Part shown: piece by piece, positions 2,901 through 5,340 of the stretch
Layout of the letters: every line of letters begins with the position of its first letter
How positions within the stretch are numbered: position 1 is the stretch's first letter
NCBI GenBank assembly: GCA_951406725.2
Contig: OX597815.1
Coordinates: 113,274,001 to 113,338,000 of the forward strand
DNA from: Octopus vulgaris
Lineage: Eukaryota
Direction of reading: 5' to 3'
Length of the DNA stretch: 64,000 bases
Notes under the pieces: model-generated
Told to the model about the DNA's origin: nothing
What the model saw: the letters and a program-made list of their open reading frames with translations, nothing else
Databases searched by the model: none
Translations under genes and position numbers: made by a program

Positions 2901-4475
2901 CACACGTACACAAACATCAAGGACTCATGCAGTCAAAACAAGAGTGATGATTGAATCTATAAGAACAGTATTTCACGCCTCATCTCCCCTACGGCGAATT
3001 TATCGAATATGTCACCAATGAGTCACTCACTGTCTTGTTTCTATGGGAGCTTGTGTCTTGCTTAACAGCGTTCGCCTCTTTTCTAGAATTATAGATATTT
3101 TTTCTATAAGCCCAACTACTGCTTCTCCTATCTAAGGGCTAGAATAAACACTTCGTTGCTGTGCAGCCGAAAATCACAGCCATTAGTTTGCTGTCGTCTG
3201 ATGTTGACAATTAGTCACATGACGCAACTGACCTAAGAAACACTTATGAATGGAAGAGAAGTTCTCATTGAATATACACCGAGAAACCTGTCTCGTTTTC
3301 TATTTACTACTACTATACATTTACTCCCGATTTCAAATACGTTTCTATCAATTTCCGCCATATTATTATTATTTTTTTTTTTTTTGCCATCACGAAAGCC
3401 TTTCGTCGAGAGTTAACTATACTGGACCAATTGCTTCATCTTTTTTTAATAGCAATACTTTAATATAGCAGCTAAATCTCCCAGAAATCGCACTATGCAA
3501 TCGTAATAAATGAAGAACACACTGTGGAATGTAGTTTTCGATACAAAAAAAAAGACGACAAAACTACAGCTGGGATGAATCTAGCCGTATGCCAGCTCCA
3601 GCAGGTAAACAAAAGCTAAAGGCTTTACAACAAGACATCTCTTCTTGCAAGTCTGACATTTTATCTTCATATCTGATGTTCTACACTCCGTCACTTAGTC
3701 GTGCAGCTTGCTAAAAGTAGTCGTTAAATCTCCCTCAGATTACATTTTACTGACTTGAATATAGCCTGTGCTGTAAAAAGAAACATGCTCACATTTGAAA
3801 CAAATATGTTTCTGAGCATAATCAAATCGATAAATTTGCAAACTGCCCCAAAATCAACTCACACAATTTTTGGTGAAAAGCTGTTTTTAACAAAGTTTTT
3901 CTGGCGCGTTTACGGAGCCGTCGTTATACTCTAAGCAAAATTGGCAATTGCCTAGGGCGCGGCTAAAATCTGGAGGCGCCGCACAAAATTCATTAATCTA
4001 AACAAAGCCCCTGAAATCCCAATAATAATAAAGTGATCGAGAGAGGTCCCGCTCAGAACAGAGGGGAATGGAGACAGGATAGGGGTGGTTATGGGAGGCA
4101 AGAGGGTTGTTTGATGTTATGGCCAAGCAAATGAGTTGACGTGAAACATCTTAAATTTTACCAGAAACCAGATTTACACGGTGATATGCATGATAAACTA
4201 GAGATTTCTTGCGTGCAAGTCAATAAAAATTTTTTTCAAATGCATTTCAGCTGGAGTAATGAAGGTGATGGTTGGGAGTATTTGAAAAAAAATGTTAAAG
4301 GGAGTGCACAATGTAGAGTTGTAAGATAGGGAAACAAGCTGTAGAGCTGGGAGCAGAGAAGAACATTGTAGGACTAAGAGGAGTGTACAATCTAGGACTC
4401 AGTCAAGGGCACTGTTTATACCCGTTACAGGCCCTGCGCAGTCATGTGCACCATCAGGAAAAGAATCTTGTGATA

Positions 4476-5049
4476 CATCGTGACGTATATTTGCCATTTA
4501 AATATTGCTAACCCCTAAGGGTGGATGCTACTGTAGTTTGTAGCCCCATGAGGACACTTCCACCAGCTGGCTTTAGACACACTTTCTGTGCCCTATCAGT
4601 ATTTGCAAAGGGAAGCTATCCTTCCCGTCTTCAACTTATGATACACACGGACGATGTATTGCAGCTACTGTTTATAACTCGCTCTAAGATTTATTATTGC
4701 TTGATTACACCTTTTCGATATCAGTGTCTTTACGATACTGGAAAAGGGATAAGTATTTGCGAAGAGAACCTACTTTTCCTCGACAACTGTGATTGTCACA
4801 CGCCGATGACGGGTCAATACCCAGAAACTCGAGTCCATGTGTATCATAAGTTGAAGACGAGAAGGATGGCTTCCCTTTGCAAATACTGATAGGACACAGA
4901 AAGTGTGTCTAAAGCCAGCTGGAGGAGGTGTCCTCCTGGGGCTACAAACTACAGTAGCATCCACCCTTAGGGGTTAGCCATATTTAAATGGCAAATATAC
5001 GTCACGATGTGTTGCAGCTACTGTTTATAACTCGCTCTAAGATTTATTA
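4476..5049 (+). mobile_element. Non-autonomous Penelope-like element: inverted partial copy plus forward unit, 12-bp TSD
   Basis: About 4476-4652 is the reverse complement of about 4833-5009. A 44-nt direct repeat lies at 4653-4696 and 5006-5049. TSD AATCTTGTGATA at 4464-4475 and 5050-5061. Internal hammerhead motif. Confidence 0.82.
4797..4842 (+). ncRNA. Minimal type I hammerhead ribozyme motif (degenerate)
   Basis: CACACG-CCGATGA-C-GGGT caat ACCC-A-GAAAC-TCGA-GTC-CATGTG; the inverted copy preserves CGTGTG. Palindromic loop III as in PLE HHRs. Two lesions: U4>C and a C-A mismatch at 10.1-11.1. Confidence 0.75.
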
Positions 5050-5199
5050 AATCTTGTGATAGCTCTTTATGAAACTAAGTTTCAGAGATTTGTAACTTTT
5101 CTGATGTTAGTGGGGAGACAGTTACTACCGGAAACATACAACATCTGGTCCTCTTTCCGTCTTTAACAATACCAGTATGTATTTTTTAGAAAATGAAAT

Positions 5200-5253
5200 G
5201 AGAAGAAGAAGAAGAAGAAGAAGAAGAAGAAGAAGAAGAAGAAGAAGAAGAAG

Positions 5254-5290
<37 letters not shown>

Positions 5291-5340
5291 GCAACAGGAA
5301 CAACGACGACGACGACAAGGACAGCATCAGCATCATCATC
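5200..5340. repeat. (GAA)n(CAA)n compound trinucleotide repeat
   Basis: Visible directly. Confidence 0.95.

Follow-up and report, generated by a model that had tools for sequence, protein, structure and literature searches.

The 64,000-nucleotide stretch of the Octopus vulgaris genome analysed here (contig OX597815.1, positions 113,274,001 to 113,338,000; hereafter the window) carries, at 4464–5061, an insertion of 598 bp in which two arms of a 353-nt repeat meet head to head. It is most probably (a probability of roughly 0.85) an ordinary insertion of a non-coding repeat, likely mobilised in trans by the reverse transcriptase and GIY-YIG endonuclease of a Penelope-like element (PLE), and the coincidence of its inversion breakpoint with the GUC of a hammerhead-like motif would be a matter of chance. 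The insertion is attributed to PLE machinery because the anatomy of the repeat family matches the published hallmarks of PLE insertions point by point; since no autonomous PLE related to the repeat in sequence was found, the case for mobilisation in trans is one of insertion anatomy. A preliminary description of the window had read the same breakpoint as a genomic fossil of hammerhead cleavage in vivo, a reading that is not borne out by the breakpoints mapped across the family (231 arms), which show no excess at the GUC. The parts of the insertion are listed below, with unit coordinates in which q1 is position 4651 and q186 is position 4836, the first base of the RNA after predicted cleavage.

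4464–4475: left copy of the 12-bp target-site duplication, AATCTTGTGATA (exact direct repeat)
4476–4652, minus strand: inverted 5'-truncated arm, 177 nt (inverted-repeat mapping)
4651–4652: head-to-head junction microhomology of 2 nt (AC), common to both arms (read from the sequence)
4651–5003, plus strand: full 353-nt unit, q1–q353, of the forward arm (direct-repeat spacing of 353 nt)
5004–5049, plus strand: terminal redundancy q1–46, 46 nt, the tail of the forward arm (97.8% identical)
5050–5061: right copy of the target-site duplication, AATCTTGTGATA (exact direct repeat)

All four features noticed in the preliminary description were confirmed: the 12-bp duplication is exact, the direct-repeat copies begin at 4651 and 5004 with the 353-nt spacing that had been claimed, the terminal redundancy is present, with a length of 46 nt in place of the 44 nt first given, and the inverted arm lies upstream. 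The forward arm is 1.13 units long. The inverted repeat pairs 4475–4652 with 4833–5010 (178 nt, 96% complementary), and the inverted arm is the reverse complement of the unit from q183–185 to q353 plus q1–6/9; in the family set, where the window copy is locus L001/L056, this arm was mapped with its 5' end at q183 and its 3' end at q9. Full-length copies 93–96% identical to the window unit are present elsewhere in the genome, and since at least 2972 candidate copies of the 353-nt unit were found, the direct and inverted repeats of the window are far beyond chance. The window copy is typical of its family, with a 12-bp duplication, an arm with a short tail (q6–9; outer end at 4476) opposite an arm with a long tail (q46; outer end at 5049), and an overlap of 2 nt between the arms. 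Between the two arms, about 4% of positions are different, and CG against TG/CA accounts for at least one case (4648 against 4837), which suggests CpG decay after insertion.

As had been reported, the inner end of the inverted arm maps to 4833–4835, the GTC of the hammerhead-like motif; it does not lie on the predicted scissile bond between 4835 and 4836, being 1–3 nt upstream of it. Because 4651–4652 are common to the arm and the forward unit, only one of the three GUC bases, that at 4650 (equivalent to C4835, C17 of the hammerhead), is certainly included in the arm, which may hold all three. A cleaved RNA would begin at q186, and therefore could not have templated an arm that contains C17.

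The family was sampled in the same genome (2.8 Gb, 227 contigs) in four ways: the 30 best full-length matches of the unit; 80 loci with an exact 28-mer near the 3' end of the unit, from the first 100 of 500 places; 86 loci with an exact 28-mer at q209–236, from the first 100 of 596 places; and 100 loci with either of two exact words starting at q191, one of the young (280 places) and one of an old subfamily (107 places). After removal of duplicates, 296 loci and 364 unique arms were retained. Among these arms, adjacent arms of opposite orientation formed 100 head-to-head pairs and no tail-to-tail pair. In 74 of the 78 pairs tested, the whole pair lay within a duplication of 6 bp or more (mode 12–13 bp), against 5 of 78 with control flanks shifted by 100 nt; about half of the listed duplications are (TA)n, and many insertions lie in (TA)n. 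The proposal that the inverted arm is reverse-transcribed complementary DNA (cDNA), 5'-truncated and laid down in the same event, is upheld by the one duplication that flanks the whole pair in the window as in those 74. Pair junctions mostly show an overlap of 0–8 nt or a few filler bases, and the 2-nt overlap of the window is among the commonest types (11 of 100 pairs).

Arm lengths range from 40 to 739 nt and drop sharply beyond about 500 nt; 72 of the 364 arms exceed one unit (353 nt), only one exceeds two units (L302, 739 nt, 2.1 units), and the sampled loci showed no long tandem arrays. Of the suggestion of a circular or tandem template of about 353 nt, what these arms support is a template that exceeded one unit, an idea already part of the PLE literature; the data do not call for a circular one. 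The 3' ends of the arms fall into two narrow classes about 43 nt apart, q352–14 (short tail) and q36–60 (long tail), which, by analogy with Anolis PLE, would be the start sites of reverse transcription. Among classifiable pairs, 75 of 78 combine one short with one long end, three are short and short, and none is long and long; from the unpaired arms (94 short, 57 long), 47% mixed pairs would be expected under independence (P = 3e-21). This one-tail rule points to a division of the two start sites between the strands of an insertion, each strand using one.

It has been reported by Craig et al. (2021), in the part of their account consulted here, that PLE insertions show 5' truncation, partial tandems (pseudo-long terminal repeats, pseudo-LTRs), an inverted 5'-truncated copy directly upstream, a tail of 30–40 bp confined to one end, and targets in (TA)n. 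In vitro, the protein of an Anolis PLE cleaves and extends both target strands, and reverse transcription begins at two adjacent internal sites, the tail being the sequence between them (Frangieh et al. 2024). The octopus family shares with these insertions the head-to-head inverted 5'-truncated arm, the partial tandem longer than a unit, the heavy 5' truncation, the 3' ends about 43 nt apart, the one-sided tail, and the AT-rich and (TA)n targets; of the PLE traits, 5' truncation with partial tandems, the upstream inverted copy and the one-sided tail were each found. It differs in that the 353-nt unit encodes no reverse transcriptase or endonuclease, that is, it is non-autonomous, and in a tail slightly longer than the published 30–40 bp. 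The one-tail statement in that part of Craig et al. (2021) is qualitative, whereas the rule is quantified here by the 75 of 78 pairs.

If self-cleavage had set the ends of the cDNAs, these should gather at the GUC. For the remapping of ends, natural copies of each subfamily served as the reference panel; the window copy was left out, and L294 was dropped as an internal deletion. Among the 231 arms that reach q195, ends at q183–188 (GUC ± 3) number 8 against 6.6 expected (P = 0.34), and ends exactly at q186 number 1 against 1.1 expected; by age, the young arms (at least 90% identity) have 4 ends at q183–188 against 2.6 expected and the older ones 4 against 4.0. No sign of cleavage 3' of H17 was found in the genomic 5' ends of these arms. 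Inner and 5' ends are scattered along the unit, with a main hot spot of 5' ends at the 3' foot of a long hairpin, q235–254 (window 4885–4904; 29 against 11 expected), and another at q1–16 (window 4651–4666; 15 against 5.6 expected), the start-site region, in which the 5' end of the window forward arm falls. In the upstream unit, ends at q263–270 (window 4913–4920) number 4 against 1.0 expected, with 4 more in the length-selected first sample, and few arms reach beyond. A further hot spot at q139 was rejected as a homology boundary between subfamilies, not true ends. Hammerhead self-cleavage has no detectable part in where the cDNAs end. In a limited literature search, judged by titles and the beginnings of abstracts, none of the papers listed dealt with the inversion junctions of PLEs, and no report was found that sets the breakpoints of PLEs or retrozymes in relation to the site of the hammerhead.

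The hammerhead-like motif itself lies within the unit as follows.

4752–4888, plus strand: long hairpin q102–q238 enclosing the hammerhead-like motif (fold of the unit)
4790–4846, plus strand: hammerhead-like motif (sequence, covariation in 138 distinct copies, core composition)
4790–4793/4797–4802 paired with 4836–4841/4843–4846: helix I, 6+4 bp
4803–4809: core box CCGAUGA
4806–4889, plus strand: short open frame of 27 codons and a stop, with its ATG inside the hammerhead core box
4811–4813/4820–4822: helix II, 3 bp, GGG/CCC
4824–4827: GAAA
4827–4834: 8-nt palindrome ACUCGAGU, which contains the 2-bp helix III
4833–4835: GUC, with the predicted cut between 4835 and 4836

The motif has covarying helices; a canonical core, the direct adjacency of helix II and a match in Rfam were not found. 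In the three helices, 138 distinct sequences from several subfamilies have 95.4% of their cells paired, against 17–57% with the partners slid. Compensatory changes are found in helix I (AU to GC, 38 sequences), in helix II (GC to AU, 7) and in the helix III palindrome (UA to CG, 41), and represent a few subfamily-level events, not many independent ones; in the old subfamilies the palindrome is ACCCGGGU. Set against the type I hammerhead core, the window copy departs at position 4, and every other core position is present. The young subfamily, to which the window copy belongs, has CCGAUGA, with C at core position 4, in 27 of 30 copies and in 66 of 91 distinct sequences, and the old subfamilies keep U4 in 46 of 46 sequences (CUGAUGA or CUGACGA). 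Substitutions at U4 of the hammerhead lower its activity. A CpG-to-TpG change would restore the canonical box, of which L014 (CTGATGA) is an example. The G10.1–C11.1 adjacency is likewise absent, one extra nucleotide standing on each side of the GGG/CCC helix in all subfamilies (C or U 5' of the helix, A or U 3' of it). Rfam gave no hammerhead at gathering score in the window and none at E ≤ 10 in 4400–5120 or 4770–4870, nor any in four other loci (including L014), where the search gave just microsatellite-driven microRNA-like noise, nor in the canonical-core copy L197. Judged from its sequence, the motif is hammerhead-derived, but the subfamily of the window lacks two features of the hammerhead core. 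The young subfamily has apparently amplified without need of an intact core. That it seems to have multiplied well with C4 is in keeping with the finding in vitro that insertion can do without ribozyme cleavage: hammerhead mutants of the Anolis PLE are inserted as usual, and the hammerhead site is neither the start nor the end of any RNA-seq read (Frangieh et al. 2024). The unit as a whole is strongly folded (−121.8 kcal/mol, z = −6.96).

The start of the Anolis PLE's open reading frame lies within the hammerhead core, and the cut follows 26 bp downstream (Frangieh et al. 2024); the octopus motif, like that of the PLE, has an ATG in its core box; in the window, the GUC lies about 29 nt downstream of the ATG in CCGAUGA. 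By this comparison, the 27-codon frame is likely a remnant of the start of a PLE reading frame. The ATG that opens a frame in the core box, together with the spacing of the GUC, suggests that the unit may be a deletion derivative that has retained the start of a PLE reading frame and the pseudo-LTR.

Possible donors of the machinery are plentiful in the genome. There are 6136 GIY-YIG candidates, with 150 of the 150 scored exceeding the Pfam cut-off, and many intact open reading frames of 781 aa with RVT_1 and, at the C-terminus, GIY-YIG. One very abundant PLE family (L123–L127, e.g. C16:20834000-20842500) carries the intact 781-aa frame after a separate frame of 333–359 aa, and the latter had no significant Pfam match. 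For a second PLE family, at least 1900 candidates were counted; the copies of this family terminate in (TA)n or (TC)n(TA)n. A tblastn search with the 781-aa frame against all loci gave PLE fragments at 7 loci. At L302/L315 (C3:94502280-94506406), the head-to-head pair with the 739-nt arm lies together with a 5'-truncated PLE of the second family in a single (TA)n tract; as a shared element this was rejected, since the two are separate insertions in one (TA)n tract, with a common target preference and no sequence similarity.

In the favoured explanation, the endonuclease would nick both target strands about 12 bp apart, as in the Anolis PLE; each 3'-OH would prime cDNA synthesis, by the same analogy, at one of the two adjacent internal start sites of a transcript longer than one unit; each cDNA would stop early, the forward one at q1 (a family hot spot) and the inverted one at q183–185; and the two cDNA ends would anneal and fill each other in. 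Several points weigh against this explanation. Among the two PLE families examined for similarity to the unit (19 loci in all), no autonomous PLE with nucleotide similarity to it was found: BLAST of the unit against 5 + 12 PLE loci and 13 copies of the second family gave no match at E < 0.01–1. A first, smaller hazard test, which left out the window copy, gave 9 ends at q183–188 where 4.4 were expected (P = 0.034); this nominal excess was gone with more loci and subfamily-aware end mapping, and one supposed end at q183, that of L294, proved to be an internal deletion. From the final counts, an excess at the GUC of up to roughly 3–4% of arms is compatible with the data by our own estimate of the Poisson upper limit. 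L064 ends exactly at q186. L143 (C1:107876063-107879090, at about 1436–1500) is a near-perfect palindrome with both arms ending at q186/187, and this palindromic joint, a single case, is compatible with chance; a few cleaved templates would give both loci the same look. The sample, moreover, is drawn by exact 28–29-mers from the first contigs listed, and so consists of copies with intact words and is no census.

The rival explanations may be weighed on the same evidence. That the inverted arm is cDNA which ran off the 5' end of an RNA cleaved in vivo by its hammerhead, as the preliminary description held, would account for an inner end at 4833–4835, for helices preserved by compensatory changes, and for the few other arms that end at q186–187 (L064, L143, L214 and L030). 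It is nonetheless very improbable: the arm holds C17 and possibly U16.1 and G16.2, so that it extends past the start of a cleaved RNA at q186; ends near the GUC are no commoner than expected (8 against 6.6, and 1 against 1.1 at q186); the window subfamily has CCGAUGA in place of CUGAUGA, with no hammerhead match in Rfam; and the PLE tested in vitro inserts hammerhead mutants normally, with no RNA reads starting at the site (Frangieh et al. 2024). Even less credible is an origin of the inverted arm after insertion, either by two independent insertions at one site or by an inverted duplication at the DNA level. The preference for AT-rich and (TA)n targets does bring repeated hits to one site, as at L302/L315, but a single 12-bp duplication surrounds the whole composite in the window, and 100 head-to-head against 0 tail-to-tail pairs, like the 75 of 78 pairs with mixed tails, are not given by independent hits.

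Two further possibilities concern the template. Both arms of the window may come from one RNA, since on a tandem template they are contiguous, with an overlap of 6–9 nt (q183 to q353 plus 6/9 for the inverted arm, and from q1 for the forward arm); one unbroken transcript, 1.6 units long or more, would then have been primed twice, the second primer acting at the short-tail start site just upstream of the stop of the forward cDNA, which makes this a special case of the favoured explanation and no separate enzyme system. The enrichment of 5' ends at q1–16 (15 against 5.6 expected) is in line with it, and the same geometry is seen in L006, L015, L029, L043, L075 and L095. Most pairs, in contrast, duplicate positions of the unit (e.g. 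q250–353) and would require two units, two RNAs or one RNA copied twice; one RNA and two are indistinguishable from sequence alone, and twin priming on one RNA is rather unlikely. Rolling-circle reverse transcription of a 353-nt circular RNA, as in the retrozyme model, could also have made a forward arm longer than the unit. Such a circle would suit the 72 of 364 arms longer than one unit and the strong self-pairing of the unit RNA (z = −6.96), which is like that of retrozyme circles, and circular templates have been put forward both for PLEs and for animal retrozymes in the parts of Cervera and de la Pena (2014; 2020) consulted. Against it stand the fall in arm lengths beyond about 500 nt, the one arm in 364 longer than two units, the lack of long arrays in the sampled loci, and the cluster of ends at q263–270 in the upstream unit, which fits linear transcripts with a fixed 5' end. 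Because of the arm-length distribution and the stop at q263–270, linear transcripts with a fixed 5' end are favoured, and rolling-circle copying is improbable. The assembled contigs of four sequencing runs gave short fragments of the family, uninformative on starts, ends or circles.

The family may be further compared with other known systems. In the portion of Cervera and de la Pena (2014) considered, PLE hammerheads are described as having an extra base after A9 and a palindromic helix III, and are thought to be dimeric, with poor cleavage in vitro; dual hammerhead motifs on opposite strands 100–700 bp apart are also described in PLEs. As set out there, these minimal hammerheads resemble the octopus motif in the extra nucleotide between A9 and helix II, in a very short helix III within an 8-nt palindrome (ACUCGAGU, or the older ACCCGGGU) that would allow a dimer, and in the dual opposite-strand motifs; they differ from it in that the octopus motif has an extra nucleotide between helix II and G12, a helix II of just 3 bp and, in the young subfamily, C at core position 4. 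A derivation of animal non-LTR retrozymes from PLE pseudo-LTRs has been argued for in a preprint (Li et al. 2026), and retrozymes are characterised, in what was seen of Cervera and de la Pena (2020), by multi-copy tandem arrays, canonical type I hammerheads and abundant circular RNAs. Similar to animal retrozymes, as far as these excerpts describe them, the octopus unit is small (in the range of 170–400 nt), non-coding and strongly self-paired, with a type I hammerhead-like motif, and the family co-exists with PLEs and has target duplications longer than 4 bp. Unlike retrozymes as portrayed in the same excerpts, its copies are scattered, most of them below two units in length (1 of 364 arms is longer), with no long tandem arrays in the sampled loci, and its motif is atypical and missed by Rfam.

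Twin priming is reportedly the source of the 5' inversions of LINE-1 (L1). The octopus insertions resemble it in that both nicked target strands would prime cDNA and in that an inverted 5' segment is joined to a forward 3' segment by microhomology within one target duplication. They differ in that the second primer in L1 acts at variable internal sites, whereas the outer ends of the octopus arms lie at two fixed positions of the element, and in that both octopus arms usually share the same 3' part of the unit. Apart from the insertion, a compound microsatellite lies about 150 bp downstream of it in the window, at 5203–5335, where (GAA)n is followed by (CAA)n and then by GAC/CAT repeats.

Had the insertion been a true cleavage fossil, hammerhead cleavage in vivo would for the first time have been documented in the genome for an animal retroelement, a reading that the test does not support. 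What the window leads to is a clean and abundant case of a small non-coding PLE passenger in the octopus, whose hundreds of young copies give base-level statistics on PLE integration: its two fixed putative start sites, one for each strand, its microhomology joints, its 12–13-bp duplications and its (TA)n targets. Of the by-products, the one-tail rule in its quantified form is the most useful, and it hints that two sites react in concert. Tentatively, and with the odds against it, the rule may be the footprint of a concerted two-headed reaction in which a dimeric PLE particle would nick both target strands and use each of the two adjacent start sites once, possibly by copying one multimeric RNA two times over, after which each cDNA would prime the second strand of the other. 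If this is true, inverted copies would be the default product of PLE integration and not an accident.

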